Source: Flavobacterium sp. (lineage in GTDB: Bacteria; Bacteroidota; Bacteroidia; Flavobacteriales; Flavobacteriaceae). From it: a DNA stretch of 64,000 nt. Position numbers and translations under genes: made by a program. Shown piece by piece: positions 14,267 through 56,910 of this stretch. The first letter of the stretch is position 1. Each line of letters starts with the position of its first letter. The DNA lies in contig NZ_JASGHW010000003.1 in assembly GCF_047602195.1 (NCBI RefSeq), positions 167,173 through 231,172 of the forward strand, given 5' to 3'. The notes beneath the pieces were generated by a model. That model was not told where the DNA came from. It saw only the letters and a list, made by a program, of their open reading frames with translations, and made no database searches.

Positions 14267-14274
14267 TATTTTTG
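14267..14274 (+). promoter_or_regulatory. Candidate -7 box (TAnnTTTG) for the PPIase cluster
   Basis: TATTTTTG lies about 80 nt upstream of the ATG at 14354. Confidence 0.35.
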
Positions 14275-14353
14275 TTGGCTGAATTTTAACCAAGTACAAC
14301 CAAAACGCACTTATATTTTTTCGAATTTTATTAATCAAACTGGAATTAAAATA

Positions 14354-26684: not shown

Positions 26685-28949
26685 ATGGCTTTTGATATTG
26701 AAATGATTAAAAAAGTGTACGCCAACATGACGACACGCGTGGACGCAGCCCGTCAAATCGTTGGCCGACCGCTTACACTGACCGAGAAAATTTTATACAA
26801 CCACCTTTGGGAAGGCATGCCTTCCAAAGCTTTTACACGAGGCAAGGATTATGTCGATTTTGCACCCGATCGTGTAGCCTGCCAGGACGCCACTGCGCAA
26901 ATGGCCTTACTCCAATTCATGCACGCCGGAAAGCCCAAAGTGGCCGTTCCAACGACCGTTCATTGCGACCACCTGATCCAGGCAAAAGTAGACGCAACCA
27001 CCGATTTGGCACGTGCCAAAACACAGAGCAGCGAAGTGTTCGACTTCCTGTCTTCGGTTTCTAATAAATATGGTATCGGTTTCTGGAAGCCGGGAGCCGG
27101 AATCATCCACCAGGTGGTTTTGGAGAATTATGCGTTCCCGGGCGGAATGATGATCGGGACGGATTCGCACACCGTAAATGCCGGAGGTCTCGGAATGGTG
27201 GCCATCGGAGTCGGTGGTGCCGATGCCGTTGACGTGATGTCGGGCATGGCTTGGGAATTGAAATTTCCAAAACTGATCGGAGTCAAATTGACCGGAAAAT
27301 TATCAGGTTGGACCGCTCCTAAAGATGTCATCTTGAAAGTTGCCGGAATTCTTACGGTTAAAGGTGGAACCGGAGCAATCGTAGAATATTTCGGGGAAGG
27401 CGCGACCGCAATGTCGTGTACCGGAAAAGGAACCATCTGTAACATGGGTGCCGAGATCGGGGCAACGACTTCGACTTTCGGATACGACGAATCGATGGAC
27501 CGCTACCTGCGTTCGACCGACCGTGCCGATGTAGCCGATGCGGCGAACCAAATCAAATCGTATTTGACAGGCGACCCGGAAGTATACGCTGAGCCAGAAA
27601 AATATTTCGACCAAGTGATTGAAATCAACTTGTCGGAATTGGAACCGCACCTGAACGGACCGTTTACGCCAGATTTGGCTACGCCGATTTCGAAAATGAA
27701 AGAAGAAGCGATCAAGAACAACTGGCCTTTGCAAATCGAGGTCGGACTCATCGGATCATGTACAAATTCATCTTACGAAGACATTGCCCGTTCGGCTTCA
27801 CTGGCCAAACAAGTTGCCGAGAAAAACCTCAAAACTAAAGCACAGTTCACGATTACGCCGGGTTCTGAGCAGGTAAGATATACGATTGAAAGGGACGGAT
27901 TCATCGACACGTTCGACAAGATCGGTGCAACGGTTTTCGCCAATGCGTGCGGACCTTGCATCGGGATGTGGGACAGGGAAGGAGCCGAGAAGGAAGAAAG
28001 AAACACGATTGTACACTCGTTCAACCGCAACTTCTCTAAACGTGCCGATGGTAACCCGAACACTTTGGCGTTCGTAGGTTCGCCGGAATTGGTGACGGCT
28101 TTGGCCATCGCCGGAGATTTATCCTTCAATCCACTCACCGATACCTTAATCAACGAAGACGGCATGGAAGTCAAACTCGACGAACCAACCGGAAACGAAT
28201 TGCCGCCACGCGGATTTGCCGTAGAGGACGCCGGTTTCCAGGCACCTGCCGCCGACGGTTCGAGTGTTCAGGTTCAGGTAAGCCCGACTTCGGAGCGTTT
28301 GCAATTGCTCGCGCCTTTCCAACCTTGGGACAGAAAGAACATTACCGGAGCGAAGTTGCTCATCAAAGCATTCGGAAAATGTACCACCGACCACATTTCG
28401 ATGGCCGGTCCTTGGTTGCGTTTCCGCGGACATTTGGACAACATTTCCAACAACATGCTCATCGGGGCGATCAATGCGTTCAACCACAAAGCCAATTCGG
28501 TGAAAAACCAATTGACAGGTGAATATGATGCAGTACCGGCGGTGCAACGTGCTTACAAGGCAGCAGGCATTCCATCGATCGTGGTGGGCGACCACAACTA
28601 TGGCGAAGGTTCATCGCGCGAGCATGCGGCGATGGAGCCGCGTTTCCTCGGTGTGAAAGCCGTTCTTGTGAAATCGTTCGCACGTATCCACGAAACGAAC
28701 TTGAAAAAACAAGGAATGTTGGCGTTGACTTTTGCCAATGAAGCCGATTATGACAAAATCCAGGAAGACGACACGATCAACTTCACGAACCTGACCGATT
28801 TTGCACCGGGCGTTCCGTTGACTTTGGAATTCACCCACGCCGATGGTACGACCGATATCATCATCGCAAACCATACCTACAACGAAGGCCAGATCGGTTG
28901 GTTTGTGGCTGGTTCTGCACTCAACCTGATTGCAGCCGAAGCGAAGTAA
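26685..28949 (+). CDS. acnA: Aconitate hydratase (about 754 aa, mitochondrial-type)
   Basis: Fe-S ligand motifs are present: [18 protein letters not shown] and ACGPCIGMW. The start is the ATG at 26685 ([12 protein letters not shown]). A TAAATTTG -7 box lies upstream. Confidence 0.93.
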
Positions 28950-42025: not shown

Positions 42026-42950
42026 TTGAGACCAAACAGACCCATATTCGTTTTGATCCTGCTTTTCGCAATGGCCACTTCCTTTGCACAAAGCGGGCTA
42101 AACCGTTTCCTAACCCCGGCTGATACCTTAAGCAAACCCCGTGCTTTGGGCGTGACCATTTCTATGGGTGTTTTGGCCGGTGGCTCGATTGCTTTGCTCA
42201 ACCAGTCTTGGTATTCCGATTACGACAAAACCGATTTCCATACCGTCAACGACAATGCCGAGTGGCTGCAGGTCGATAAGGCCGGACATGTTTTCTCGGC
42301 TTACCACCTCGGAAGACTGGGCAAGGAAGCCTTGCAATGGTCGGGCGAAACGCGGACCAAACAATTGGTTTACGGCCCCGGACTGGGTTTGCTCTATTTG
42401 AGCGCGGTCGAAATCATGGACGGCTATTCTTCGAACTGGGGATTTTCGTATGGTGATATGGCGGCCAATGTTGGCGGGACGGCTTTGTTTGTCGGCCAGG
42501 AATTGCTGTGGAAAGAGCAGCGCATCACGCCAAAATTTTCATTCCATACGACCGAATATGCTTCGGCGCGCCCGAACGTGCTCGGAGAAAACTTGCCCGA
42601 ACAAATCCTCAAGGACTACAATGGACAGACTTATTGGCTGTCTGCCAATGTGCATTCGTTTCTCAAAAACACCAGTGTCAAAGTACCCAAATGGCTCAAT
42701 GTCGCGATCGGTTATGGAGGCGAAGGGATGATCACCGGCGAGGATGTTTTGGTCAATACCGTTTTTCTCGAAAGAAAAGGAAAGAACGCGCCAATTTTAC
42801 TTCAGTTTTGACGCCGACCTGACCAAAATCGAAACCAAATCGCACGTGTTGAAGACCCTTTTTTCGGTTTTCAATACCGTCAAAATCCCCGCGCCGACTA
42901 TTGAATTGCGCGGTGACGGCAAGGCAAAATTCCGCTACCTTTATTTTTAG
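42026..42950 (+). pseudogene. DUF2279-family outer-membrane or lipoprotein-like gene interrupted by one extra A at 42767-42776 (CTCGAAAGAA)
   Basis: ORF 41963-42811 ends ...NTVFLERKGKNAPILLQF*. The +1 frame continues EKERTRQFYFSFDADLTKIETKSHVLKTLFSVFNTVKIPAPTIELRGDGKAKFRYLYF* to 42950. Removing one A joins the two pieces as ...VFLEEKERTRQFYF... A probable TTG start at 42026 gives the signal peptide MRPNRPIFVLILLFAMATSFAQ. Confidence 0.7.
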
Positions 42951-42992
42951 AAAACTTTAACTGATTGATTTTCAGTAACTAGTTATTTGTCG

Positions 42993-43000
42993 TATATTTG
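42993..43000 (+). promoter_or_regulatory. Candidate -7 box (TAnnTTTG) for the 43049 gene
   Basis: TATATTTG lies about 49 nt upstream of the ATG at 43049. Confidence 0.4.
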
Positions 43001-43048
43001 CACCGCAGAAATTTCCGCAACGTGACAGGTTCGGAAGAAAACCAAAGT

Positions 43049-43684
43049 ATGATTAAAAAATGGTGTTTTTATATTGCAATTCTCTTTTCAGTCGCTTATT
43101 TGAGTTCGGGTTTTAAGCCTTCAAGGCTCCAAAATCAAGAATGGTTGCAGACCCATTCGAATGAGCAAATCACCTATTCGCTTCCTTCCAAAGAACAAAA
43201 CGATTACATCCGCCTCAACGTTCCTTTTACCGGTAAATTCTTTATCGGTTTTAAAGAAGCACTTGCTTTCAAGGAATCACAAGGCAAATACCATAAAGTC
43301 AACACGCTCGGTTATCTGGGGAAATACCAATTCGGCCGTGAAACCTTAAAATCGATCGGCATCCACGACAGCCTCGCTTTTTTGCGCAGTCCCAAATTGC
43401 AGGAAAAAGCGTTCGTGGCCCTGTTGTCCAAAAACAAATGGGAATTGCGCGACGAGATCAAGAAATATTCCGGCAGGATCATCAGCGGCGTCAAGATCAC
43501 CGAGTCGGGAATCCTTGCGGCGGCCCACCTCGGCGGTGTCGGCTCGGTCAAGAAATTTCTGTGCAGCAATGGCGAAAAGAAATGCAAGGACGATTACGGC
43601 ACTTCGGTCAAAAGTTATATGAAAATGTTCGGCGGGTATGAAACCCAGGGAATCATCGCCGACAGTTCTGCCAAGGCCAAATAA
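43049..43684 (+). CDS. Hypothetical membrane-anchored protein with a possible lysozyme or lytic-transglycosylase-like domain
   Basis: An N-terminal TM segment is present (MIKKWCFYIAILFSVAYLSS). The pattern FKESQGKY...GYLGKYQFG...ILAAAHLGGVG resembles the SLT-type pattern ES...G.xQ...AYN.G. This is by eye only. Confidence 0.5.
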   Translation: MIKKWCFYIAILFSVAYLSSGFKPSRLQNQEWLQTHSNEQITYSLPSKEQNDYIRLNVPFTGKFFIGFKEALAFKESQGKYHKVNTLGYLGKYQFGRETLKSIGIHDSLAFLRSPKLQEKAFVALLSKNKWELRDEIKKYSGRIISGVKITESGILAAAHLGGVGSVKKFLCSNGEKKCKDDYGTSVKSYMKMFGGYETQGIIADSSAKAK

Positions 43685-43703
43685 TTTTGAAACAAAATTG
43701 ATA

Positions 43704-43733
43704 CAAACCTGTCAGCAATGGCAGGTTTTTTTA
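43704..43733. terminator. Bidirectional terminator between convergent genes
   Basis: The stem AACCTGTCA/TGGCAGGTT with loop GCAA is followed by T7. Confidence 0.65.
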
Positions 43734-44201
43734 TTTTTGAAAGGTTAGGACTTTAATGAGTTCCTTTTCCTCCGGCGTCAGTCCCTTGAGGGTAATTCCT
43801 ACGCAAGTTGTTGTAAACCCTGCTTCTCCAAATTCAAAAAAGACATTTCCGGAATCGGAATTCAGGTCAAATTTTTTGAGCGCCCCAATCGCAGTCAGGC
43901 TGTTGTCACTGATGCTCATAGGATAATCCATCACCTTATATTTTCCAATCCTATAAAACGGCAAGATGACCAAACCCTTTTCGAGGAAAATCAAATCGCA
44001 GCGCCGGAACAAATAACGGCTATTTTTGAGCCCTACCGTGTAGGTCGAACAGGCTACCGATTTTTTTTCTGCGAGAATTTGGTCTTTGCACCGCTCGTAA
44101 AATTGGTCCAGTTGAAATTTTGCCCGATCATGGGCTTGTTTGGTGCTCCAAATGAGAATGGCCAACAGTCCGCCAATCATTATAAAAGGAATCGGAGTCA
44201 T
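43731..44201 (-). CDS. Hypothetical protein with an N-terminal TM helix
   Basis: The N-terminus is MTPIPFIMIGGLLAILIW. No family was recognised. Confidence 0.5.
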   Translation of the reverse strand: MTPIPFIMIGGLLAILIWSTKQAHDRAKFQLDQFYERCKDQILAEKKSVACSTYTVGLKNSRYLFRRCDLIFLEKGLVILPFYRIGKYKVMDYPMSISDNSLTAIGALKKFDLNSDSGNVFFEFGEAGFTTTCVGITLKGLTPEEKELIKVLTFQK

Positions 44202-44216
44202 ATTGATTAATTTTTA

Positions 44217-44325
44217 TTGGGCGTGCCCCTGCGGGTCGCGCTTTTCGCTTTATCTTTTACGGCTTCGTCCCGTAGAGTCGGGACTGCGTCCGCAAAAGGA
44301 TACCGCTGCAATCGCTCACGCGCCC
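44217..44325. repeat. Intergenic palindromic repeat element, family 1-related, copy 3
   Basis: The left end is GGGCGTG...GCGCTTTTCGCTTTATCTTTTAC. The central hairpin is GTCCCG/CGGGAC. The right end is GCAAAAGGATACCGCTGCAATCGCTCACGCGCCC. Confidence 0.6.
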
Positions 44326-44330
44326 TCGAA

Positions 44331-45068
44331 TCAAAACTTGTGGATGATAAAAATCGCCGGCCTGTTGTGCAAATCCACCTTGATTTTTTTCCAATCCTGC
44401 ACGCGCAACGTTTTGATGAATTCGGTCGGCAAGGTCAGGTCGGCAGCGACACACAAATGCGTGTTGGGTTGCAAGGTTTGCAGTAAATCTTCCAATAGTT
44501 TGTTGTTGCGGTACGGCGTTTCTATAAACAACTGCGACTGGTTTTTATTTTGGGAAAGTGTTTCAAAATTTTTCAAGGCCGACTTCTTTTCGCCTTTGTC
44601 GATCGGCAAATAACCATTGAATGCAAAACTCTGCCCGTTCATTCCTGAACCCATTACCGCCAATAGGATAGAGGATGGCCCGACTAGCGGCACGACCTGG
44701 ATCCCTTTTTCATGCGCGAGCTTGACAATCGCCGCACCCGGATCGGCCACGCCAGGACAACCCGCTTCGCTCATCAGTCCCACGTTTTTGCCTTCGAGGC
44801 AAGGTTGGATCATCGCGTTGTACTCGGAAGTTTCAGTGTGTTTGTTTAAGGCAGAAAGCCGTAATGTTGCTTGTACTTTGGCCGGTTCGATGGCCTTGAT
44901 GAAACGGCGTGCGGTTTTTTCGTTCTCCACGATATAATCGTCGATAAAACCAATCGTGCGTTGGATGGTTTGCGGCAAGACTTCCGCGGCGTTTTGCTTG
45001 GCCAGTTCGCTGTCGTTCGGGTCGCAGAGCGGAACCGGAATCAAGTAGAGTTTGCCTAAAGCTTTCAT
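44331..45068 (-). CDS. SAM-dependent methyltransferase of the tetrapyrrole-methylase (RsmI-like) superfamily
   Basis: LYLIPVPL, GLMSEAGCPGVADPG and ETPYRN blocks are present. The gene is the third of a dnaA-PTP-methylase string, as in Flavobacterium. Confidence 0.75.
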   Translation of the reverse strand: MKALGKLYLIPVPLCDPNDSELAKQNAAEVLPQTIQRTIGFIDDYIVENEKTARRFIKAIEPAKVQATLRLSALNKHTETSEYNAMIQPCLEGKNVGLMSEAGCPGVADPGAAIVKLAHEKGIQVVPLVGPSSILLAVMGSGMNGQSFAFNGYLPIDKGEKKSALKNFETLSQNKNQSQLFIETPYRNNKLLEDLLQTLQPNTHLCVAADLTLPTEFIKTLRVQDWKKIKVDLHNRPAIFIIHKF

Positions 45069-45532
45069 GGGTGTTGGGCCATCAATTTTTTGGCAATGAT
45101 GTCGCAGGTTTCGTTGAGCATTTGGTAAACGTTGTCGAAACCGTTCGCCAATCCATAATAAGGATCGGGTACGTCTACATTTTCACCCGGAAACAATTCG
45201 TTGAGGATCATTTTGACCTTGGCTTTGTGTTCGTCGGATTTGGCCATACGCAGCACATCGTCATAATTGGTGCTGTCCATCACATAGATGTAATCGAAAG
45301 CGTCAAAATCGGAAACAGAGAACAATTTGCCGCGTTGGCCCGAAATGTCCAATCCATTTCTTTTGGCCACATCGATCGAACGGCTGTCGGGTTGTTTGCC
45401 CACATGCCAATGACCGGTTCCGGCCGAATCGACGAGGAATTGGTCTTTCGGAAGTTTGGATGCCAACAGTCCTTCTGCCAAAGGCGAACGACAAATATTA
45501 CCCAGGCAAACCATTAAAATCTTAACAGGCAT
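45065..45532 (-). CDS. Low-molecular-weight protein-tyrosine phosphatase
   Basis: The P-loop is VCLGNICRSP (CX5R-S). The DSAGT and DPYY motifs are present. Confidence 0.92.
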   Translation of the reverse strand: MPVKILMVCLGNICRSPLAEGLLASKLPKDQFLVDSAGTGHWHVGKQPDSRSIDVAKRNGLDISGQRGKLFSVSDFDAFDYIYVMDSTNYDDVLRMAKSDEHKAKVKMILNELFPGENVDVPDPYYGLANGFDNVYQMLNETCDIIAKKLMAQHP

Positions 45533-45534
45533 TG

Positions 45535-46962
45535 TTAAAGCGAGAGTTTCTTGTTGATGTCTTCAACGAATTTCTTGAACTGCTTGTCGGTGGCGACGAG
45601 GTTATCGACGGTCTTGCAAGCGTGCAATACCGTAGCGTGGTCGCGGTCCCCGATTTGCGAACCGATGTTGGCCAGTGAAGCCTTCGTGAATTTCTTCGCA
45701 AAGAACATCGCCAATTGTCTGGCCTGCACCACGTGGCGTTTTCTGGTTTTCGATTGCAGGGTTTCGAGGTCCAACTGGAAATAATCGGATACGATTTTCT
45801 GGATGTAATCGATCGAGATTTCGCGTTTGACATTCTTGACGAATTTCTCGACCACGTGTTTGGCGAGCTCGATCGTCACTTCTTTTTTGTTGAAAGAAGA
45901 CTGCGCAATCAAGGAGATAATCGCGCCCTCGAGCTCACGAACATTCGATTTGATGTTGCGCGCGACGTATTCGATGATTTCCTCGGGCATGTCCACACCG
46001 TCGCGGTACAAGATGTTCTTGAGGATCGAGATACGCGTTTCGTAATCGGGTTGGTGCAATTCGGCAGACAATCCCCATTTGAAACGCGAGAGCAAACGTT
46101 GCTCGATGTCCTGCATGTCCACCGGCGCCTTGTCTGAAGTCAGGATGACCTGTTTGCCGTTTTGGTGCAGGTAATTGAAGATGTGGAAAAACACATCCTG
46201 TGTTCCTGATTTTCCGGAAAGGAATTGCACGTCATCGATAATCAACACATCGATCAATTGATAGAAGTGGATGAAATCGTTGCGGTTGTTTTTCTTGACC
46301 GAATCAATATACTGTTGCGTGAAAATCTCGGCTGAAATGTACAGCACGGTTTTCTCGGGATATTTGTCCTTGATTTCGACCCCAATCGCGTGCGCCAAAT
46401 GTGTCTTTCCGAGACCGACGCCTCCGAAAATGAGCAATGGGTTAAACGAGGTTCCGCCCGGTTTGTTGGCTACGGCCATACCGGCAGAGCGCGCGAGTCG
46501 GTTCGAATCGCCTTCGAGGAAATTGTCGAAACTGTAATTCGCGTTGAGCTGGGATTCGATTTTGAGGTTCCGGATGCCGGGAATCACAAACGGATTCTTG
46601 AGTTCCGGACTTAGGTTTTTGAATGGAGCATCGACTTCCTGCGACTTGACAGGCGAGCGGTGCGCACTGGGCAACTGTTCGGTGAACGGTTGTTTGTTGC
46701 CGTAAGTGTTTTCCATCTTGATTTTATAGAGTAACTTTGCGTTTTTTCCGAGTTCTTTCGTAAGCGCCACTTTCAACAATTTGACGTAATGTTCTTCCAG
46801 CCATTCATAGAAAAATTTACTAGGAACTTGGATGTACAAAGCATTATCGGTGAGCTCAACAGACTTAATCGGTTCAAACCAGGTTTTGTAAGCCTGATCC
46901 TGGATATTGTCCTTTATGAATAAGAGACAATTTTCCCATACTGATTGCGCAGTTTTGCTCAT
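45535..46962 (-). CDS. dnaA: Chromosomal replication initiator protein DnaA
   Basis: Walker A is GGVGLGKTHL and Walker B is LIIDDVQFL. The C-terminal DNA-binding domain reads RKRHVVQARQLAMFF...GDRDHATVLHA. The protein is 475 aa from the ATG at 46962. Confidence 0.96.
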   Translation of the reverse strand: MSKTAQSVWENCLLFIKDNIQDQAYKTWFEPIKSVELTDNALYIQVPSKFFYEWLEEHYVKLLKVALTKELGKNAKLLYKIKMENTYGNKQPFTEQLPSAHRSPVKSQEVDAPFKNLSPELKNPFVIPGIRNLKIESQLNANYSFDNFLEGDSNRLARSAGMAVANKPGGTSFNPLLIFGGVGLGKTHLAHAIGVEIKDKYPEKTVLYISAEIFTQQYIDSVKKNNRNDFIHFYQLIDVLIIDDVQFLSGKSGTQDVFFHIFNYLHQNGKQVILTSDKAPVDMQDIEQRLLSRFKWGLSAELHQPDYETRISILKNILYRDGVDMPEEIIEYVARNIKSNVRELEGAIISLIAQSSFNKKEVTIELAKHVVEKFVKNVKREISIDYIQKIVSDYFQLDLETLQSKTRKRHVVQARQLAMFFAKKFTKASLANIGSQIGDRDHATVLHACKTVDNLVATDKQFKKFVEDINKKLSL

Positions 46963-47163
46963 AAATTGTAATAAATTAGTGTTTTTATTAAAGGTTCTCT
47001 TACAAGAAAAACAGTGGGTTTTTGCTTGTTTTTCGGGGTAACAAATATGTGAACAAAAATCGTTAAAAAAAAATAAAAATCGAGTTGATTTTTTAAAATT
47101 ATTATTGTAAGACGACATTTCTTACCCTATTGCAATGTACTAAATTTCTAATTAAAAAACCAT

Positions 47164-47577
47164 ATGAAAACATCCGAAGTTCAAGTTCGCGTAAGATATT
47201 CTGAGACAGACCAAATGGGGGTCGTTTACCACGGCAATTACTTGCCGTACTTCGAAATTGGCCGTGTCGAATGGTTGCGCGAAAAGGGCGTTTCCTACAA
47301 ATGGATGGAAGAAAATGGTGTCGGATTGCCGATTGCCTCGCTGACTTTGAACTACAAAAAACCGGCGCGCTATGATGAGTTATTAACAGTCAAGACGACC
47401 TTCAAAAGTCAAAGTTCTGTCAAGATCGAATTCGACTGTGAAATCGTCAATGAGCAGGGTGAATTATTGACGACGATGTACATTATGTTGGTCTTTGTCA
47501 ATTTCCAAACCGGGCGTCCGATTCCACCGCCGGATTACATCAAATCGATACTCGAAAAAATAGAAAAAGAAGCGTAA
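47164..47577 (+). CDS. Acyl-CoA thioesterase, YbgC/4HBT hot-dog family
   Basis: VRVRYSETDQMGVVYHGNY is the typical N-terminal catalytic Asp context. Confidence 0.82.
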   Translation: MKTSEVQVRVRYSETDQMGVVYHGNYLPYFEIGRVEWLREKGVSYKWMEENGVGLPIASLTLNYKKPARYDELLTVKTTFKSQSSVKIEFDCEIVNEQGELLTTMYIMLVFVNFQTGRPIPPPDYIKSILEKIEKEA

Positions 47578-47582
47578 AAATT

Positions 47583-48194
47583 TTAAGGTTTGGGTTGGAT
47601 CGAAACTTCAAACATCGACTCGAAAATTTCCTGGATCATCGCCGCATTTTTTTGACGCGTCGCGATTTCGATCTCGCAGCTCATCTCCATTTTCTGGCCG
47701 ATGATCTCGAGGTTCTTTTCCTTGACCACACGCATGACCTTGTTCATGTTTTTGTAGTCGAATAAAACCAGGAAATGCACATCGATGGTGCGCTCGACGA
47801 TAGCGGCATTTTCCAAAGCCATTTGCGCCGCCGTACGGTAAGCCGTAATCAATCCGCCGACGCCGAGCTTGACGCCTCCGAAAAACCGGACGACCACAAT
47901 CAGGATATTGGTCAGCCCAAACGATTGGATCTGTCCGTAAATGGGCATGCCGGCCGAATTCGATGGTTCGCCGTCGTCGTTGGCGCGAAAGGCAATTTTC
48001 GTCGTGCCCATCTGCCAGGCATAACAAAAATGTACCGCGCCGAAATGGCGTTTGCGCAATGTCTCGAGATGGTTCTTGATTTCATCCTCCGAAGTCACGG
48101 GAAAAGCATAGCCGAAAAACTTGCTGTTCTTCTCCTTGTATAATATCTCATCGGAAGGTTCGGAAAGGGTTTGGTAAGTATCTTCAGGTTTCAA
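47583..48194 (-). CDS. YigZ/IMPACT-family protein (UPF0029)
   Basis: The block KNSKFFGYAFPV...HFCYAW...DDGEPSNSAGMPI is present. Confidence 0.82.
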   Translation of the reverse strand: MKPEDTYQTLSEPSDEILYKEKNSKFFGYAFPVTSEDEIKNHLETLRKRHFGAVHFCYAWQMGTTKIAFRANDDGEPSNSAGMPIYGQIQSFGLTNILIVVVRFFGGVKLGVGGLITAYRTAAQMALENAAIVERTIDVHFLVLFDYKNMNKVMRVVKEKNLEIIGQKMEMSCEIEIATRQKNAAMIQEIFESMFEVSIQPKP

Positions 48195-48200
48195 ATGCGG

Positions 48201-48803
48201 TTACAGTAGTTTTTTGTCGAACAAATGTACGACATCTTCCACACCTGGCTGCAAATTCCAGACTTGTAACCCGCATTCGGCCGCAGCATCGCAGTTTTCC
48301 TTCTTGTCATCGACGAACAAGGTCTTGCGCGGCGACAGATCATGCTTCCTTATAATGTAGTTGAAAATCTCGCAATCGGGTTTGCGCATGCCCATTTCAT
48401 ACGAATAGTAGACTTTCTCAAAGCACTGATAGAACGCGCTTGCAAACGATTCTCCCACCAATTCCTCGAACTGGCGGATGTGGATCGCGTCGGTATTGGT
48501 CAACAAAAACAAGCGGTATTTGTGTGAAAGCAATTGCAGGAACTCAAGCCGCTCGAGCGGAAATTCACCAATAATGGCATTCCATGCGTCGCGGATCGCC
48601 TCGATGTCGGCTTCGGGCAAATGCTTGCGGAAGCCATCCATGAATTGGTTTTCGGAAATCCTGCCCCTTTCAAATTCGTCGTTGAGCGCGAGCAATTCAT
48701 CATTCGGGCCGTTGAGCCCGAGTTTGCGGAACTGGTCGAGCGACTTTTCCTTCTCGAGGTTTACAAATACATCACCAAAATCAAAGATAATTGTGTTAAT
48801 CAT
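48201..48803 (-). CDS. HAD-superfamily hydrolase (subfamily IA-like phosphatase)
   Basis: Motif I is IIFDFGDV, motif II is LLTNT and motif IV is FVDDKKEN. Confidence 0.8.
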   Translation of the reverse strand: MINTIIFDFGDVFVNLEKEKSLDQFRKLGLNGPNDELLALNDEFERGRISENQFMDGFRKHLPEADIEAIRDAWNAIIGEFPLERLEFLQLLSHKYRLFLLTNTDAIHIRQFEELVGESFASAFYQCFEKVYYSYEMGMRKPDCEIFNYIIRKHDLSPRKTLFVDDKKENCDAAAECGLQVWNLQPGVEDVVHLFDKKLL

Positions 48804-49872
48804 ACTGCCTGAATATTAAAAGTTCGTCGCTGCCGATGGTTTGTCTGTGCTGCCAATTGGCGTTGAAATCCGGGGCCGGGATGCCGTCGCCCAAAACAAT
48901 CGGGCTCTTGAAAACCCGCGCCTCGTCCCACAATCCCGAATCGATGAAAGACTGTAGTGTTTGGCGTCCGCCTTCCACAATCACCGATTGCAGGTTTTGC
49001 CTGTAAAGGACATCCGCAATTTGCTGCGGAATAGCCGTGACCTCGACTGGATTCAAACCCGTAACCTTCTGGGCCGCAAAGTCAATGGCAATCCAATCGA
49101 CATTGTCTTTTTTCCAATCGAAATCGTTCTCGCCAAACACGATGGTTCGTACCTGACTATCAAATATATAACTTTCTTTCGAAATCCGGTTGCTTTTGTC
49201 AATAACTAATCTGACGGGATTTGGACCACTCCAATCGCGCACGTCCAATTTCGGGTTGTCGTCAACAACAGTCTGGGTTCCCACGAGAATTGCCTGTTCT
49301 TTCGAACGCCATTTGTGCACCAATTGGCGCGCATAAATACCAGAAATCCACACCGGTTTTTGTTCATATCTTTTTTTCGGGGCAATCAATCCATCGGCAC
49401 TTTCGGCCCATTTCAAGATGATATAAGGCCGTTTCCTGTTATGGAACGTAAAAAAACGTTTGTTGAGTTCGCGGCATTCTTTTTCCAAAACGCCGACGAT
49501 CACATTTTTACCCGAAGCCTTGAGTTTGGCAATTCCGCTTCCGGCCACTTTTTCATTCGGGTCGACACAGCCCACGACGACATTCGGGATTTGATGGGCG
49601 ATGATCAAATCGCAACAGGGAGGCGTCTTGCCGAAATGCGAACAAGGCTCGAGGCTCACATAAATCGTCGCTTCTTTCAAAAGCGATTTGTCTTTGACCG
49701 CGTTTACGGCATTGACCTCGGCATGCGGTTCGCCTGATTTTTGGTGCCAGCCTTCGCCGATGATTTTGCCGTTGTGCACGATCACGCTGCCCACCATCGG
49801 GTTCGGATAAGTCGTCCCCAGCCCATTTTGGGCCAGTTCGATGCAGCGTTGCATATACAGTTGGTGGTTCAT
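48796..49872 (-). CDS. ribD: Bifunctional riboflavin biosynthesis protein RibD (pyrimidine deaminase/reductase)
   Basis: Zn-deaminase motifs HAEVNA and PCSHFGKTPPC are present, with a C-terminal RibD_C reductase domain. Confidence 0.93.
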   Translation of the reverse strand: MNHQLYMQRCIELAQNGLGTTYPNPMVGSVIVHNGKIIGEGWHQKSGEPHAEVNAVNAVKDKSLLKEATIYVSLEPCSHFGKTPPCCDLIIAHQIPNVVVGCVDPNEKVAGSGIAKLKASGKNVIVGVLEKECRELNKRFFTFHNRKRPYIILKWAESADGLIAPKKRYEQKPVWISGIYARQLVHKWRSKEQAILVGTQTVVDDNPKLDVRDWSGPNPVRLVIDKSNRISKESYIFDSQVRTIVFGENDFDWKKDNVDWIAIDFAAQKVTGLNPVEVTAIPQQIADVLYRQNLQSVIVEGGRQTLQSFIDSGLWDEARVFKSPIVLGDGIPAPDFNANWQHRQTIGSDELLIFRQYD

Positions 49873-49892
49873 GTGTGTAAAAATACTTCAAA

Positions 49893-49925
49893 ATTCGCTA
49901 TTCGTTGTTCGATGTTCGACATTTA
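49893..49925. repeat. TGTTCGA-heptamer repeat, left copy
   Basis: The sequence is TTCGTTGTTCGATGTTCGACATTT. It is a direct repeat of 50047-50064 and the inverted partner of 50095-50110. Confidence 0.65.
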
Positions 49926-49940
49926 AATATAATTTTGTTT

Positions 49941-50024
49941 AGGAGCTTTTCCGGCTTTCCACTGCAATCTTTTTAAAACTCCTTTCGTCGTTTCAAAAAG
50001 GATTTCCGTTTCAATCCGGGCTAG
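49941..50024. repeat. Intergenic palindromic repeat element, family 1, copy 2
   Basis: The element runs AGGAGCTTTTCCGGCTTTCCACTGCAATCTTTTT...AAAAAGGATTTCCGTTTCAATCCGGGCTAG. Confidence 0.75.
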
Positions 50025-50043
50025 TGCATCTGTTCAATATTCA

Positions 50044-50112
50044 GTGTTCGTTGTTCGACATTTGACATTCATTTTTGAATAACGAATGATGATTAACGAA
50101 CATCGAACAAAG
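50044..50112. repeat. TGTTCGA-heptamer palindrome upstream of prmC
   Basis: GTGTTCGTTGTTCGACATTTGACATTC...GAATG...TTAACGAACATCGAACAA forms a ~14-bp stem with one mismatch, and an inner CATTC/GAATG pair is present. Confidence 0.65.
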
Positions 50113-50120
50113 AAGTTCAA

Positions 50121-50963
50121 ATGAAGATTATAGATTACAGGAATTATTTCATCCAAACCCTTACGCCGCTCTACGATGCCGCCGAAGCGGAAAGTTTTTT
50201 CTATCTGATTCTCGAACACCAAACGGGAATGAAACGCATCGATTTGGCGCTCGATCGCGACCGCGAATTTTCGCAAACAGAAATCGAAACCTGGAACCCA
50301 ATTCTCGAACAACTCAAACAGTTCGTCCCGATACAATATATAATAGGTACAACCGAATTCTTCGGACTCGAATTCGAGGTCAACCCCAACGTACTGATTC
50401 CACGTCCCGAAACCGAGGAACTCGTACAGTGGATTTTGTCGAACAATCCCAATGGCAATGTCAAAATACTCGACATCGGAACCGGTTCGGGTTGCATCGC
50501 CATTTCGCTCGCCAAAAATTTACCCGATGCGCAGGTGTCGGCCATCGATGTCTCCGAAGAAGCTTTGGAAACTGCAAAGCGCAACGCCCAGCGCAATGAA
50601 ACAAAAGTGAATTTCATTCAAAGAAATATTTTACAGACCGAAAATCTGGAAGAAACTTTCGACATCATTGTTTCCAACCCGCCTTATGTGCGAAACCTCG
50701 AAAAAGAAGAAATCAAAAAGAACGTACTCGAGCACGAACCACACCTGGCATTATTCGTCGACGACCACGATGCGCTGTTGTTCTACCGCAAAATTGCAGA
50801 TCTCGCGCTTCAAAATCTTTCGCCCAAAGGCCAACTGTACTTTGAAATCAACCAATACCTGGGCAAAGAAATGATGGATCTACTCGAGCAGAAAGGTTTC
50901 TCCCAACTCGAATTGCGGGCAGACATTTACGGAAACCACCGGATGGTTTTCGGCAGGATTTAA
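50121..50963 (+). CDS. prmC: Release factor glutamine N5-methyltransferase PrmC/HemK
   Basis: The SAM motif is ILDIGTGSGCI. The catalytic motif is NPPY (IVSNPPYV). Confidence 0.92.
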   Translation: MKIIDYRNYFIQTLTPLYDAAEAESFFYLILEHQTGMKRIDLALDRDREFSQTEIETWNPILEQLKQFVPIQYIIGTTEFFGLEFEVNPNVLIPRPETEELVQWILSNNPNGNVKILDIGTGSGCIAISLAKNLPDAQVSAIDVSEEALETAKRNAQRNETKVNFIQRNILQTENLEETFDIIVSNPPYVRNLEKEEIKKNVLEHEPHLALFVDDHDALLFYRKIADLALQNLSPKGQLYFEINQYLGKEMMDLLEQKGFSQLELRADIYGNHRMVFGRI

Positions 50964-51326
50964 TTATTTAAACCGTTCGGGATGGTCCATCATGTGTTGG
51001 ATCATGGTTCCAATGGCGGTACAACGGTTGAGCATCGGCGCTAAAGTTTCGGCATCGATGTAGTTGCAATTGGCCGCCAGCTCGAGCCAGGTATACGTTT
51101 GGCCGTTCGCAGAATTGGCGTCGATGAGCGTGGTCTGGTAATACTTGACGAATTTTGTCCGGTGCATCGCCTCAGACAAATGCACACAGACATTCCGCGA
51201 AGAAAGCCGCATGGGTTTGGTGACGATTTCGAATTCCTCTTGCGGAAACTGTTTGGAAATCTCAAAAATGGATTGCGCCAATTTAGCGGCCGATCGGTAG
51301 GCGGGTAAATCTTGAACTTTCATCAT
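50964..51326 (-). CDS. Four-helix-bundle protein (23S rRNA intervening-sequence protein family)
   Basis: The protein is 120 aa. It shows the AYRSAAKLAQSIFEISKQFPQEE...RLSSRNVCVHLSEA pattern typical of TIGR02436-like proteins. Confidence 0.75.
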   Translation of the reverse strand: MMKVQDLPAYRSAAKLAQSIFEISKQFPQEEFEIVTKPMRLSSRNVCVHLSEAMHRTKFVKYYQTTLIDANSANGQTYTWLELAANCNYIDAETLAPMLNRCTAIGTMIQHMMDHPERFK

Positions 51327-51411
51327 TCGGAATAATTGCGGTAGGCTAATTTCGCAACTTGAAATGAAATCGGATTACAGATTTTCTGCCGTAAATCTTA
51401 AATTTTTATCG

Positions 51412-52653
51412 TCATTCATACCGCAAAGCCTCGATCGGATCCAACCTCGACGCTTTCACCGCCGGATACGAACCCGAAACAATCGCCACAATAAACGTCG
51501 TTACGAATGCAGAAATGATGGCGGTCCAAGGAGTCACAAAACTAAATTCCAGCAAGAAGGCAATGCCGAAACCGGCCGAAATTCCGAGGATGACCCCGAG
51601 CAATCCGCCCATTTGCCCAATGACGAGTGTTTCGATGAAAAATTGCATCGCAATCGTGCTGCGTTTGGCGCCCAATGCTTTGCGGACACCAATTTCGCGT
51701 GTGCGTTCGGTGACCGAAACCAGCATGATATTCATCAATGCAATCGAGGAACCGAAAATCGTGATGATACCGATGACCCAGGCCGAAATGCCGAGGTACT
51801 GCGTGATGTCGAGGATCTTGTTGATGAGGTCGTCGCTGCGCGAAATCCCGAAATTGTTTTCCTGCACCGGGCTCAACTTGCGCACGCGCCGCATCGTGCC
51901 GATGGCGTTGTCGATGGCGTAATCGAGCAATTCCTTTTTTTCGATCATCGAACTGATCGTGTAGTTGATGTTGGGTGCGGTAAACAGCGAACGCGCGACT
52001 TGGATTGGAATCAACACACGCAAATCCTGGCTGTTGCCAAAGGTCGAGCCTTTTTCCTTGAGCACGCCGATGACCTTGAAACGCGCGCCGCGGATCGAGA
52101 TGATCTTGTCGATCGGGTTGACATCCTTGAGCAAATCCTTTTCAAAATCAGACCCGACGACGCAAACATAAGCGTTGTTTTGGATGTCGAAAGCGGTGAA
52201 ATTTCGGCCCTGTGTCGTTTCTGAACCCGAATTCAACAAAAAATATTCATCGACGCCCATGACGGTGATTTGCGGATCGGTTTTTTTCGATTCAAACTTG
52301 GCCTCGGCCTTGGTGGTGGCAGTAAATGACAAGGAAGTATGCGTAAACGGGTAACGGAATTTTTCCTTGAAAGCCACGGCTTCGGGCCACGAAATAATCG
52401 GGTTGATTTTCTTCTTGCGGTTGCCGCCGTGCATGCGTTCGGAAATGTCGTATTGCTCGATCCGGAAGGTATTCGAGCCCATCGAGGCAAAATCGCTCGA
52501 AATCGTGTGCTCGAGCGCCGCCACGACCGTCAGGATGCAAACCAATGCCGTGATGCCGATGGCGATGATCAAAACCGTGAGAATGGTACGCAGCAACTGG
52601 GTCTTGATCGAACCCATCGCAATCCGGATATTCTCTTTGAACAATTTAAACAT
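51412..52653 (-). CDS. ABC transporter permease, MacB/FtsX-like
   Basis: An N-terminal TM segment, a periplasmic MacB_PCD-like domain and a C-terminal FtsX 3-TM block (RTREIGVRKALGA) are present. The start is the ATG at 52653. Confidence 0.88.
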   Translation of the reverse strand: MFKLFKENIRIAMGSIKTQLLRTILTVLIIAIGITALVCILTVVAALEHTISSDFASMGSNTFRIEQYDISERMHGGNRKKKINPIISWPEAVAFKEKFRYPFTHTSLSFTATTKAEAKFESKKTDPQITVMGVDEYFLLNSGSETTQGRNFTAFDIQNNAYVCVVGSDFEKDLLKDVNPIDKIISIRGARFKVIGVLKEKGSTFGNSQDLRVLIPIQVARSLFTAPNINYTISSMIEKKELLDYAIDNAIGTMRRVRKLSPVQENNFGISRSDDLINKILDITQYLGISAWVIGIITIFGSSIALMNIMLVSVTERTREIGVRKALGAKRSTIAMQFFIETLVIGQMGGLLGVILGISAGFGIAFLLEFSFVTPWTAIISAFVTTFIVAIVSGSYPAVKASRLDPIEALRYE

Positions 52654-52737
52654 GGCTGGTTTTTGTTCTGCTAAAGTAAGCAAAACTGCCGCAATTTTGC
52701 ATAAAAAGCGGTATTATTGTAGCTTAATTCTATTCCA

Positions 52738-55414
52738 ATGAAAGGTTTCTTTTTTCAAGCGGCGTTGCTGTTTTTGGTTTTCGCTTCCGCGGCTATTGTG
52801 CAAGGACAAAATGGCGCAATCATCCACCAAACCAGCGATTACACTATTTTTTCGGATGGCGTCAAGCAAGGGGCATTCTCGGCCAAAGCAGTTTCGTCCA
52901 CTGAATTGGTGTCGAATTACCAAAGCCCCAAAAACGAATCGGTTTCTTCGCTGGTCGAGTTCAAATTCAGCATCAACCAGAAAGACAATGAAATGAAACC
53001 GGGCCTCAACCATTGGTTCAACCTTTCCGGAAAAACAGAAACGCCGCTGATTCAATTCGGCCAGCCGTTAACAATGACCGATAAAAATGAAACTTCGATT
53101 CCATCGGATACGCCGCTTAAAGTGCGGTTAGACCTGCGTCCCGTTTTGGCCGAAATTAAATCCAAAGGCTATTTCACGACCTTCAACGGCGACCGGATTT
53201 TCAAGGCCGATTTCAAACACGTCTACATTGCCGGGGCCACCGCACCGTTGACTTGGGATTTCGACAATTTGCACCAGAAGCCCGAACTCGAAATGAAAGA
53301 CCCGGATGGCGATGGCATTTATGAAACGAAATTGGTATTCAATTCCAAAAAGGACCAAAAGACCACCGACGGGAACTGGAAAATGACCCGAAACACCACG
53401 GCTTTTCCACAGTACCAATCAGACCACGTTTTGGCCGATGCGATCTACAACCTTTCGCTCGAAAGAAATGATCAACGCCGTAGAACCCGACGGCACTTTC
53501 CGTACCGGGAAAGAATGGGCGGGCGTGTGGACACGCGACATCAGTTACAGCATCATCTTGTCGATGGCTTACTTGCAACCGCAGGTGGCGATGAACAGTT
53601 TGATGCGCAAGGTCAACGAAAACAAGCGAATCATCCAGGATACGGGAACCGGCGGCGCTTATCCGTGTTCAACCGACCGTGCGATTTGGGCCACGGCAGC
53701 CTGGGAAGTTTACAAGGCGACGGGTGACCAAAAGTGGCTCGAAAGTACTTATGAAATTATCAAAAATTCGGTCGACGACGATTACTGGATGGCATTTGAT
53801 GATGAAACCAACCTCATGCGCGGCGAGTCGTCTTTCCTAGATTGGCGCGAGCAAACCTATCCCAAATGGATGCAGCCGGCCGATATCTTCGAATCGCAAA
53901 ACCTGGGGACCAATGCCGTGCATTACCAAGCCAATATGGTTTTGTCTAAAATGGCGCGTGCCTTGGGACACGAAGCCATCGCAGCCAAACACGAGCGCAC
54001 CGCCGAATCGATCAAGAAAGGCATCAACGACCATTTGTGGATTACCGACAAAGGCTATTACGGCCAATATTTGTACGGCAGGAATTACAAAATGCTGTCG
54101 CCGCGTGCCGAGGCATTGGGCGAGGCACTGTGTATTCTATTCGGTATAGCTGATGCAGAAAAAGCGGCTTCGATTGTTGCCCAATCACCACAGTTGGCGT
54201 ATGGGATTCCGTGTATCTATCCGCAGATTCCGGGCCTGCCGCCGTACCACAACGACGCAGTCTGGCCGTTCGTGCAATCCTATTGGGCACTGGCTTCGGC
54301 CAAGGCGGGCAATGAGGCTTCGGCGATGGAATCGATTGCGGCGATTTACAGACCGGCGGCTTTGTTTTTGACCAACAAGGAAAATTTTGTCGCGGGCAAT
54401 GGCGATTTTGCGGGTACGGTCATCAATTCGAGCAATATGTTGTGGAGCCTTTCCGGGAATATCGCACTCGTGCACAAATTGCTTTTCGGGATCGAGTTGC
54501 AGGCGGACCGTTTGGTTTTCCATCCGTTTGTACCCAAACCATTGGCGGGCCAACGCAGACTAAACAATTTCAAATACCGCAACGCCATTTTAGACATCAG
54601 CCTGTCGGGTTACGGAAACCAGATCAAGAAGTTCACGGTCGATGGCAAAAAGGCCCAAACCGAAATCTTGGCCAGCTTAACCGGGAAGCACAAGATAGAC
54701 ATCGTTTTGAACAATGATTTGAAACCTTCTTCGATCAACAAAACGGAGAATTATTTTTCGCTCCCGACGCCTTTGGTCACTTTGGAAAACAATAAAATTT
54801 CCTGGGCCAGTATTCCCAATGCGGTCGCGTATGCGGTCATCCAAAATGGAAAAATCGTTGCCCGAATAACGGCCAATGCATACGACATTGCCATGGGAAA
54901 TTACGCCGAATACCAAGTCGTTGCCATCGATAAAAGCAACATGGCTTCTTTCGCGAGCGAACCCATTGCGGTTTTCAAACCCGAATCGGCCCACATTTAC
55001 GAAGCCGAAGATTTTGCTCCCAAAGCGAATTATGATTACAAAGGTTTTTCAGGAACTGGGTTTGTCGAAACCGCCAAATCGTCCAAAGGCCAATCCGAAC
55101 CAATGCGTTTTACGATTGACGTCGCCCAAAGCGGGACTTATGCGATCGATTTCCGTTACGCCAACGGAAACGGCCCGACGAACACCGAGAATAAATGTGC
55201 CATCCGCGATTTGAGTTTGGGCAATTCAAATTTGGGAACATTTGTTTTTCCACAACGCGGGGTGCAGGAGTGGAGCAATTGGGGTTTTTCGAACAGTGTG
55301 AAAGTTCATTTGCCCGAAGGGAAGCAAGCGCTCCAGCTCGATTGGCAGGAAAATATGAACGGTGCCATCAATCAGGCGATGATCGATTATTTACGCATCA
55401 TCAAATTGGATTGA
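52738..55414 (+). pseudogene. Secreted glycoside-hydrolase-like protein ((alpha/alpha)6-type catalytic region plus a C-terminal CBM6/35-like module), interrupted by one extra A at 53458-53467 (CTCGAAAGAA)
   Basis: ORF 52738-53727 has a signal peptide (MKGFFFQAALLFLVFASAAIVQGQ) and loses sense after ...AIYNLSLE. ORF 53438-55414 carries the continuation EMINAVEPDGTFRTGKEWAGVWTRDISYS... The C-terminus (YEAEDF...GFSGTGFVE...MIDYLRII) is CBM-like. Removal of one A gives an 891-aa protein. Confidence 0.75.
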
Positions 55415-55458
55415 TTCGCGCTTTCAACTTCGCCCAAAAAACAAGATATTTGCACATT

Positions 55459-55534
55459 ATTTCAGATTTTAGATTTCAGATTTCAGATTGAAACCAATCG
55501 AAAATCTGAAATCTGAAATCATAAATCTAAAATT
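55459..55534. repeat. Heptamer-based (TTTCAGA)n palindromic element immediately upstream of hisS
   Basis: A perfect 18-bp stem GATTTCAGATTTCAGATT (55472-55489) / AATCTGAAATCTGAAATC (55503-55520) is present. It shares TTTCAGATTTTAGA and AAATCTAAAAT with the 18566-18635 copy. Confidence 0.8.
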
Positions 55535-55538
55535 ACAC

Positions 55539-56910
55539 ATGGCCCAGAAACCCAGTACCGCAAGAGGCACGAGAGACTTTTCGCCCACAGAAGTTGCAAA
55601 AAGGCAATTCATTATCGACATCATGAAAGGTAATTTCGAGAAATTCGGATTTCTTCCCATCGAAACGCCGTCATTTGAAAATTCGGAAACCTTGATGGGA
55701 AAATATGGAGAAGAAGGCGACCGGTTGATTTTTAAGATATTGAACAGCGGTGATTTTTTGGACAAGGCAGATGAAAAGCACCTGGTCAATCGCGACAGTT
55801 TAAAATTGGCCGCGCAGATTTCAGAAAAGGCGTTGCGTTACGACCTGACCGTTCCGTTTGCCCGGTATGTGGTACAGCATCAAAATGAGATCGAATTTCC
55901 GTTCAAACGCTACCAGATCCAACCGGTTTGGCGAGCCGACCGTCCCGCGAAAGGCCGATTCAGGGAATTCTACCAATGCGATGCCGATGCCATCGGTTCC
56001 CAAAGCCTGTGGCAGGAAGTCGAATTGGTGCAATTGTACGATTCAACCTTTAGCCAGCTCGGACTCAAAGGCACAACGATCAAGATCAACAACCGCAAGA
56101 TATTATCGGGAATCGCTGAAGTCATCGGCGCTTCGGATAAACTGATCGATTTTACCGTGGCACTCGACAAGCTCGACAAAATCGGCGAAGACGGTGTCAA
56201 GAAAGAAATGATCGAAAAAGGCATTTCGGCCGAAGCGATTGAAAAAGTACAGCCATTGTTCAACTTCACCGGAACGATTTCGGAAAAAATAGAAAAATTG
56301 TCGCTATTGCTTTCAGCTTCGGAAGAAGGCAAAAAAGGCATCAGGGAACTGCGTTTCATTTGTGACCATGTGCAGACCTTGGGACTCAAGGATTCGAATC
56401 TCGACCTTGATGTGACCTTGGCGCGCGGGCTCAACTATTACACCGGTGCGATTTTCGAAGTCGCGGCCCCGGCAACAGTGTCCATGGGCTCGATTGGCGG
56501 CGGCGGACGATACGACGACCTGACCGGAATTTTCGGACGCCCGAATTTGAGCGGCGTCGGGATTTCGTTTGGCCTGGACCGGATTTACCTCGTGCTCGAA
56601 AGAACTCAGCTTGTTTCCCGAAACGGTCACTTCTAGCTCGAAAGCGCTATTTGTGAACTATGGCGAGAAAGAAGCCTTGTATGCGATGAAAGCCATCGGC
56701 CAATTGCGAGACAAAGGCATCAAGGTCGAACTGTATCCGGACAACGTCAAGCTCGGCAAACAGTTCATGCACGCCGAGAAACGCGGCATCCGCTATGCGG
56801 TCATCGCCGGCGAAACAGAGATGGCAGCGGCACAATTTGGACTGAAGGATTTGGTTTCCGGCGAGCAGACTTCAGTGAATTTAGCAGAATTAATAGACAG
56901 ATTAGCATAG
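55539..56910 (+). pseudogene. hisS: Histidine--tRNA ligase, with the reading frame interrupted by one extra A at 56595-56604 (CTCGAAAGAA). It is likely functional if the A is an artefact or is bypassed.
   Basis: N-terminal ARGTRDF, motif 2 REFYQCDAD and motif 3 GGGGRYD are present. The frame breaks after [14 protein letters not shown]. The +1 frame continues [29 protein letters not shown]..., which is the anticodon-binding domain. The corrected length is 456 aa. Confidence 0.85.

Follow-up and report, generated by a model that had tools for sequence, protein, structure and literature searches.

Three unrelated genes of a Flavobacterium sp. contig change frame at one identical 10-mer, probably through a 9-mer-specific consensus artefact

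In the window analysed here, a 64-kb stretch of Flavobacterium sp. DNA, three mutually unrelated plus-strand genes, coding for a DUF2279 protein, a secreted glycoside hydrolase and HisS, each switch to the +1 frame exactly at a copy of one 10-mer, CTCGAAAGAA, raising the question of whether the base responsible belongs to the organism or to its record. In the DUF2279 gene, the copy at bp 42767-42776 (+) has one A too many relative to L-E-E; the zero-frame coding sequence as given in RefSeq (WP_415035199.1, 252 aa; bp 42053-42811, +) ends in an out-of-frame tail, RKGKNAPILLQF, and the 57 C-terminal codons, conserved in homologues (EKERTRQFYFSFDADLTKIE...), are located in the +1 frame at bp 42777-42950 (+). 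The copy in the glycoside hydrolase gene occupies bp 53458-53467 (+), where the closest relative, L081, has CTCGAGGAA; the zero-frame ORF (bp 52738-53727, +) is genuine to bp 53466 and out of frame thereafter, and the remainder, with Bac_rhamnosid6H/MGH1-like domains, follows in the +1 frame at bp 53468-55414 (+). In hisS, which is an essential gene, the copy at bp 56595-56604 (+) corresponds to CTCGAGGAA in L081 and CTTGAGGAA in L082; the zero-frame ORF containing the class II core (bp 55539-56636, +) is genuine to bp 56603, and the anticodon-binding domain lies in the +1 frame at bp 56605-56910 (+). The frameshift is not peculiar to the copy of the sequence analysed here and is present in the public record, where the shortened DUF2279 protein is listed as RefSeq WP_415035199.1, its end (...VFLERKGKNAPILLQF) being the zero-frame read-through.

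Counting of both strands gave three copies of CTCGAAAGAA in the window, all on the plus strand (starting at bp 42767, 53458 and 56595) and all in frame with the upstream gene as CTC GAA AGA A, which bears out the first-pass annotation in its claims that the three split genes break at the same 10-mer and that no further plus-strand copy is present. Dinucleotide shuffles of the window gave a chance expectation of 0.14 copies, with three copies in 0/100 shuffles, and only three copies occurred in 2.59 Mb of related DNA. Zero-frame stops are located 11-87 codons downstream of the sites, and nothing common was found in the flanks of the three sites outside the 10-mer. It had also been proposed that removing one A from the AAA run would give L-E-E joined to the conserved downstream part; upon this deletion, all three genes indeed became continuous ORFs with L-E-E at the junction, as encoded by all examined relatives, and the junctions aligned to homologues gap-free. 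The repaired junctions were VNTVF[LF]EEKER[TV]RQFYF for DUF2279, YNLSLEEMINAVEPD for the hydrolase, the same as in L081, and IYLVLEEL[SG]LFPETV for HisS.

Among the relatives compared were L081, which is syntenic and has 47% GC, and loci for DUF2279 that share 83-87% of their nucleotides with the window. The frameshift was found in 0/82 hisS, 0/80 hydrolase and 0/5 DUF2279 relatives, and all hisS relatives from the genome search (80/80) had x-E-E at the site. No second copy of the strain was detected by exact-protein look-ups (window ORFs and 10 small proteins), a genome scan for HisS, a metagenome scan for the hydrolase or protein searches, the nearest relatives having 83-87% nucleotide identity. 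Judged by these comparisons, the insertion is confined to the present record. Relative to L081, dN/dS was 0.088 for the hydrolase (0.087 past the site) and 0.099 for HisS (0.135 past the site), with neighbouring genes at 0.04-0.20, and no extra stops or indels were found in the 647 (hydrolase) and 103 (HisS) codons downstream of the break. By this measure (dN/dS about 0.09-0.14), the parts of the hydrolase and hisS genes past the break are still under purifying selection. Relaxed selection on hisS was considered and rejected, since the 13 lineage-private substitutions of HisS at highly conserved columns are matched in other long-branch relatives (15 in L003 and 9 in L081) and its dN/dS is normal.

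Careful examination of the window revealed that the insertion saturates its targets. Nine L-E-E tripeptides are encoded, three of them by CTC GAA GAA, and these are precisely the expanded sites; the three encoded by CTC GAG GAA (intact and in frame at bp 5062-5070, +, and likewise at bp 16181-16189 and 16630-16638) and the three encoded by CTG GAR GAA are normal. With 3/3 CTC-GAA-GAA triplets expanded and no CTCGAAGAA left on the plus strand of the window, the pattern is that expected of a k-mer-rewriting rule, unlike that of independent rare insertions. Among the one-mismatch neighbours of the 9-mer, 0/35 were expanded (e.g. TTCGAAGAA, ATCGAAGAA, CGCGAAGAA, CTGGAAGAA and CTCGAAGAC), all being located in intact ORFs, as are the 8 copies of CTCGAAG and 8 copies of TCGAAGAA. 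The specificity spans the whole 9-mer.

Several simpler determinants were tried and rejected: 1) a shorter methylation motif alone, of which numerous copies are unexpanded (8 CTCGAAG, 54 TCGAAG, 61 CTCGAA and 565 TCGA), 2) a true sequence CTCGAGGAA (XhoI-type, as in L081) miscalled as CTCGAAAGAA, given that 3 in-frame plus-strand copies of CTCGAGGAA and 23 CTCGAG sites are intact, 3) a bipartite (Type I-like) motif or common flanks, none of which were visible, and 4) a generic long-read homopolymer error, as about 120 runs of 6-9 nt (about 30 of 7-9 nt and about 90 of 6 nt) occur in the window without a frame break. The earlier view of the pattern as systematic, as opposed to random homopolymer error, is upheld by the 3/3 expanded triplets, the 0/35 neighbours and these intact runs. 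The three sites did not cluster significantly around dnaA when judged simply by their span (about 0.12), and a switch in GC skew was not seen.

No further split genes were found in the window, where the ORF map is continuous and Pfam domains are whole in the 30 other ORFs scanned. The only unexpanded CTCGAAGAA is on the minus strand (bp 25302-25310), antisense to an intact plus-strand acyltransferase gene, and the control sites that the first-pass annotation had described as normal were likewise found in frame, namely ATC GAA AGA TTC (bp 15350), GTC GAA AGA CAA (bp 17789) and CTC GAA AGA GAC (bp 61322, -), the last belonging to the CTC GAA AGA G at bp 61319-61328 (-), which is read in zero frame. 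Other zero-frame readings are TTT GAA AGA AAC in prfC (RF3; bp 12897-12903, -), with Pfam domains running on both sides, and GAA GAA AGA AAC in the aconitase gene (bp 27996-28002, +). In addition, AAG GAA AGA ACG, situated 4 nt 3′ of the DUF2279 site (bp 42780-42786, +), is read as K-E-R-T in the (+1) gene frame, homologues being alike.

Based on these observations, it is quite probable that the frameshifts stem from a consensus or base-calling artefact in the deposited assembly that is deterministic and specific to the 9-mer, possibly linked to DNA modification. The extra A would then be absent from the organism's DNA, and the 9-mer CTCGAAGAA on this contig strand would be written as CTCGAAAGAA by base-calling or polishing. 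The trigger could lie either in a modification of the DNA within this 9-mer or in a neural base-caller or polisher whose blind spot is not symmetric between strands. Such an error would become visible as frameshifts in unrelated healthy genes because CTC-GAA-GAA is in-frame L-E-E in about half of the 9-mer occurrences. Unlike the sites, their saturation and specificity, the absence of the insertion from relatives and the selection downstream, the technical nature of the A-adding step is what we infer as most likely; likewise, the length of the contig (661,552 bp) points to long reads as the most likely platform of the assembly. All expanded copies are in sense frame 0, for which the chance is about 0.52^3 = 0.14 if the process is frame-blind, the sole unexpanded copy lies antisense to a gene, on the minus strand, and no plus-strand copy falls inside a minus-strand gene in the window; after correction, the window would contain 4 copies of CTCGAAGAA versus about 1.6 expected from codon usage. 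A frame-blind artefact must additionally have incomplete penetrance or be restricted to one contig strand. If driven by the k-mer regardless of gene orientation, it would break minus-strand genes at TTCTTTCGAG.

Systematic errors that are strain-specific, modification-linked and strand-specific have been described for long-read (nanopore or PacBio) assemblies of bacteria and MAGs, and polishers are able to introduce hundreds of new errors per genome (PMC11610603, PMC12392509, PMC11649196, 10.1101/2024.01.12.575342). The present case resembles such consensus errors, which recur in one context, vary from strain to strain, may be strand-specific, persist through polishing or arise from it, and show up as frameshifts where the assembly is otherwise accurate (PMC11610603, PMC12392509, PMC11649196). 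However, modification-linked nanopore errors are chiefly G>A and C>T substitutions (PMC11610603, 10.1101/2024.01.12.575342), and the documented errors occur mostly at 4-6-nt motifs, whereas here one A is added to a 2-nt run and the full 9-mer is needed. Searching the literature for the motif as a text string returned primer sequences only.

The first-pass annotation had not decided between artefact and recoding; of the two, the artefact appears to be the better fit, and recoding did not hold up in the tests applied here. In the latter case the DNA would truly read CTC GAA AGA A, and the ribosomes of this lineage would shift +1 to make L-E-E and full-length proteins in many genes, essential ones included, through tRNA-Glu in the P site with an A skipped and GAA read next, through quadruplet decoding, or through transcripts that have lost one A. 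This is compatible with a 10-mer that starts and ends on codon boundaries (the E, P and A sites plus one base), with three copies that are all sense and in frame while the sole unexpanded 9-mer is antisense, with an essential gene among the three and purifying selection on the downstream parts, and with the finding that the 10-mer encodes no genuine in-frame L-E-R-x within the window. We nevertheless regard it as very improbable. For +1 shifting, slow decoding in the A site generally matters (PMC5009743), but AGA makes up 116 of the 696 Arg codons in the window (17%) and, being common, does not leave the A site "hungry". GAA-AGA-A is read in zero frame three times elsewhere (in prfC, in the aconitase gene and 4 nt past the DUF2279 site) and CTC-GAA-AGA-G once, and a related bacterium, L104, has an in-frame CTC GAA AGA A inside a 618-codon ORF. 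By inspection, re-pairing of tRNA-Glu from GAA to AAA is impossible at the first codon position, no RNA structure was detected at the sites (fold z = 0.98, -0.49 and 0.78), neither a common flank nor a cis stimulator, be it an upstream rRNA-pairing element or a downstream structure, was found, and in all three genes the site is missing from every relative. The same rare insertion could become fixed at 3/3 CTC-GAA-GAA sites only under strong selection in its favour, of which no sign was seen, and the A3 run is much too short for transcriptional slippage, for which a homopolymer of about 7 nt or more is required.

Among known recoding systems, programmed +1 frameshifting in bacterial prfB (CUU_UGA_C) and yeast Ty1 (CUU_AGG_C) and Ty3 (GCG_AGU_U) likewise skips one base at a short site resembling a heptamer. 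In these systems the A site is occupied by a stop or by a rare, slow codon, the sites are shared between species, and each regulates a single gene, whereas here the A-site codon is common, the P/A codon pair is decoded normally elsewhere, the site is missing from all relatives and no cis stimulator accompanies it. In Ty3-type +1 shifting no P-site re-pairing is needed, and the E-site codon may modulate efficiency (PMC5009743). The frameshifting of Euplotes (AAA_UAA/UAG) and of some mitochondria (+1, at rare codons) is similar in that one shift motif recurs across many unrelated genes with a single-base-insertion origin, but their motifs depend on an A site filled by a stop codon or by one that is extremely rare, together with an altered termination or tRNA apparatus, nothing comparable being seen here, and we know of no bacterial precedent for genome-wide frameshifting of the Euplotes style. 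Poly(A) transcriptional slippage in endosymbionts also rescues broken ORFs of essential genes after the DNA level, but requires about 7-10 or more identical bases.

There is also little to recommend the view that the three genes are true and very recent pseudogenes produced by a context-specific mutational hotspot, with no recoding involved. The deposited sequence does read so, and the 13 private substitutions of HisS might be taken as decay; these, however, are paralleled in L003 and L081, and the 647 and 103 downstream codons are free of defects at a dN/dS of 0.087 for the hydrolase and 0.135 for HisS, so that neither relaxed selection nor any additional defect past the break was found. Moreover, hisS is essential and has no second copy in the window, and three breaks in 64 kb would mean that about 5% of genes are broken. 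To our knowledge, no mutational process combines 9-nt specificity with 3-of-3 saturation. Finally, three independent random indel errors or mutations that happen to share a 10-mer have a negligible probability, this coincidence being effectively refuted already by the counts (0.14 copies expected, three in none of the shuffles and three in the related DNA) and by the longer homopolymers left unaffected.

Were the extra A real, with CUC-GAA-A-GAA decoded as Leu-Glu-Glu by an efficient +1 shift specific to this context, free-living bacteria would have their first example of motif-defined +1 recoding on a genome-wide scale, against the present rule that a slow A-site codon is required for +1 shifting; provided that the window is typical, about 1 gene in 15-20 would be affected, giving a bacterial counterpart of Euplotes in which the site contains neither a stop nor a rare codon. 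In the likely case of a consensus artefact, the finding is a matter of data quality, in which a public RefSeq record would contain a rule-like error disrupting perhaps 5% of its genes, with one or more spurious truncated proteins, among them WP_415035199.1, already entered as a result. The motif itself may mark a DNA modification or a blind spot of the base-caller or polisher, and is worth reporting.

The 10-mer CTCGAAAGAA was found three times in the 64-kb window, at 42767-42776, 53458-53467 and 56595-56604, on the + strand every time, against an expectation of 0.14 copies from dinucleotide-preserving shuffles (0/100 had three copies); the 2.59 Mb of related bacterial DNA compared had just three copies in all. 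At every copy, the zero frame, in which the upstream part of the gene is encoded, read CTC GAA AGA A, and it was in the +1 frame that the conserved protein resumed. Removal of one A from the AAA run left the three ORFs unbroken, at 328, 891 and 456 codons, and placed L-E-E at each junction; all three repaired junctions aligned to homologues without gaps. Pfam assigned the genes, respectively, to DUF2279, to a glycoside hydrolase of the Bac_rhamnosid6H / MGH1-like type that has a signal peptide, and to histidyl-tRNA synthetase (hisS), the anticodon-binding domain of which is encoded in the downstream frame. The 10-mer counts, ORFs and gapless junctions bear out the first-pass annotation, which had three genes breaking at one 10-mer. 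No further split genes were seen in the window, the ORF map being continuous and the domain architectures whole in the 30 other ORFs scanned, and the flanks of the three sites had nothing in common outside the 10-mer. In RNA or single-stranded DNA, the motif can fold into a mini-hairpin, UC-GAAA-GA, whose GNRA-type tetraloop is closed by a C-G pair; the version lacking the extra A, TC-GAA-GA, is similar to the very stable d(C-GAA-G) mini-hairpins, and such a structure might have a bearing on how a polymerase or pore behaves there.

Nine L-E-E tripeptides are encoded in the window: six are normal (three CTC GAG GAA and three CTG GAR GAA), and the other three, CTC GAA GAA if repaired, are precisely the expanded sites. 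The 9-mer lacking the extra A, CTCGAAGAA, no longer occurs on the + strand of the window; its lone copy, on the minus strand at 25302-25310, was re-found, and the control sites proposed earlier as being read in zero frame were so on re-inspection. One-mismatch neighbours, 35/35 for the 9-mer and 17 for the 10-mer, lay in intact ORFs and included TTCGAAGAA, ATCGAAGAA, CGCGAAGAA, CTGGAAGAA and CTCGAAGAC; CTCGAAG and TCGAAGAA (8 copies each) were also within intact ORFs. Together with the lack of CTCGAAGAA on the + strand, these neighbours indicate that the whole 9-mer is required and that every available sense copy is affected. The TCGA palindrome was strongly over-represented in the whole window rather than avoided (565 versus 355 +/- 16 in dinucleotide-preserving shuffles), and CTCGAG had 23 sites.

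In relatives, the hisS site was x-E-E and unshifted in all 80 species-representative genome loci and in two closer metagenomic loci, HisS being 79-86% identical to Flavobacterium proteins. The closest syntenic relative locus, L081 (47% GC), shares the window's gene order between dnaA and the T9SS surface proteins, and its hydrolase (890 aa) and HisS (456 aa) are intact with CTC GAG GAA at both sites. Hydrolase homologues from metagenomes matched the query through the site in 80/80 cases, and DUF2279 loci of 83-87% nucleotide identity had TTC GAG GAG or CTG GAA GAG there. By these comparisons, the extra base is private to the source record. Ten small window proteins matched exactly GenBank MFT37938xx-939xx / RefSeq WP_4150351xx-2xx entries of Flavobacterium sp. 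(taxid 239), all from one contig and without any further source, and WP_415035199.1 (RefSeq, 252 aa; window 42053-42811) is the zero-frame DUF2279 product, with a C-terminal out-of-frame 12-residue tail (...VFLERKGKNAPILLQF); the frameshift therefore belongs to the public record. RefSeq presents this truncated product as an ordinary protein, and GenBank has no MFT accession for its sequence, which suggests that the two annotations handle the gene differently. No other, independently made assembly of this strain or its species came up in the genome, metagenome and protein collections searched.

It is likely that the breaks represent a sequence-specific consensus error in the assembly and not the DNA of the organism. 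A rule-like error would turn CTCGAAGAA into CTCGAAAGAA on a single strand of what is probably a long-read assembly, and the trigger could be a DNA modification within the 9-mer or a blind spot of the base-caller or polisher. A fully penetrant artefact acting alike on both strands would not have left the minus-strand copy unexpanded, so that either its penetrance would be incomplete or its action confined to the contig strand; restriction to one contig strand is plausible, because neither neural polishers nor left-aligned indel pile-ups are symmetric under reverse complementation. Modification-induced nanopore errors that are strand-specific and strain-dependent have been described (PMC11610603; 10.1101/2024.01.12.575342), differences that disappear with unmethylated PCR libraries have been documented (PMC11649196), and a methylation-aware polisher introduced 374 new errors in one genome (PMC12392509). 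However, the modification-linked errors documented in these papers are mainly substitutions, and a +A insertion specific to a 9-mer is unusual even for an artefact.

Ribosomal recoding, in which the extra A is real and ribosomes shift +1 at CTCGAAAGAA, appears very improbable. In its favour, the motif amounts to exactly three codons and one skipped base, the expanded copies are all sense and in frame, and the sole unexpanded CTCGAAGAA copy is antisense. From the codon usage of the window, the probability that a CTCGAAGAA copy lies in sense frame 0 is ~0.52, so that a frame-blind process would yield 3/3 with a probability of ~0.14, and the likelihood ratio that the pattern contributes in favour of recoding is perhaps 10. 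For +1 shifting, slow decoding at the A site generally matters (PMC5009743), but the A-site codon AGA is not rare, as a programmed site would require, accounting for 116 of the 696 Arg codons in the window. The identical P/A configuration, GAA AGA A, is decoded unshifted, in zero frame, in the prfC and aconitase genes and 4 nt past the site at 42767-42776, as is one copy of CTC GAA AGA G, and in a related bacterium a 618-codon ORF contains the 10-mer, read in frame; conservation in orthologues is likewise lacking, the site being missing from all relatives examined. By inspection, re-pairing of tRNA-Glu from GAA to AAA puts a mismatch in the first codon position. Transcriptional slippage cannot be sustained by a run of only A3, and no RNA structure or common stimulator was found around the three sites (fold z-scores 0.98, -0.49 and 0.78). 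Real insertions would also demand independent fixation at 3/3 available CTC-GAA-GAA sites since the split from site-less relatives, which is beyond neutral evolution. We know of no bacterial precedent for such recoding, and a likelihood ratio of ~10 is far too small against this and the mechanistic failures. Real insertions at the three sites that are not recoded are similarly hard to credit, and the remaining probability falls to other explanations. Ordinary long-read homopolymer noise was ruled out by ~120 unbroken runs (~30 of 7-9 nt and ~90 of 6 nt); these intact runs, with the 9-mer specificity and saturation, support the earlier view that the breaks are systematic and not random homopolymer error.

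Between the three 10-mer sites lies dnaA (45535-47118, - strand), so the window may cover the replication origin; no GC-skew switch was detected at 4-kb resolution. Four very large surface proteins bear Por_Secre_tail sorting domains for type IX secretion at the C-terminus (19-5931 and 6327-11783, + strand; 56986-59583 and 59796-63980, - strand, the last extending past the window end), two with MopE-like metal-binding motifs and two with Laminin_G_3 domains. On the + strand at 14234-18565, two multi-domain PpiC-type peptidyl-prolyl isomerase genes lie either side of a 282-aa ORF without a Pfam match (16321-17169), which has an A7 run at its end and a 58-nt overlap with the following ORF that looks like ordinary start-codon ambiguity rather than a frameshift.

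HisS (55539-56910) carries 13 lineage-private substitutions at columns at least 95% conserved among 82 relatives (median 1; 15 and 9 in two further relatives on long branches), including, near the N-terminus, S-I-P-K-G-T-R-D to S-T-A-R-G-T-R-D and, in the motif-2 loop, R-P-Q-K-G-R to R-P-A-K-G-R. Relative to L081, dN/dS was 0.088 for the hydrolase (0.087 over its 647 post-site codons) and 0.099 for HisS (0.135 over its 103 post-site codons), with 0.04 to 0.20 for eight neighbouring genes. Judged by these ratios, the broken genes are not decaying.
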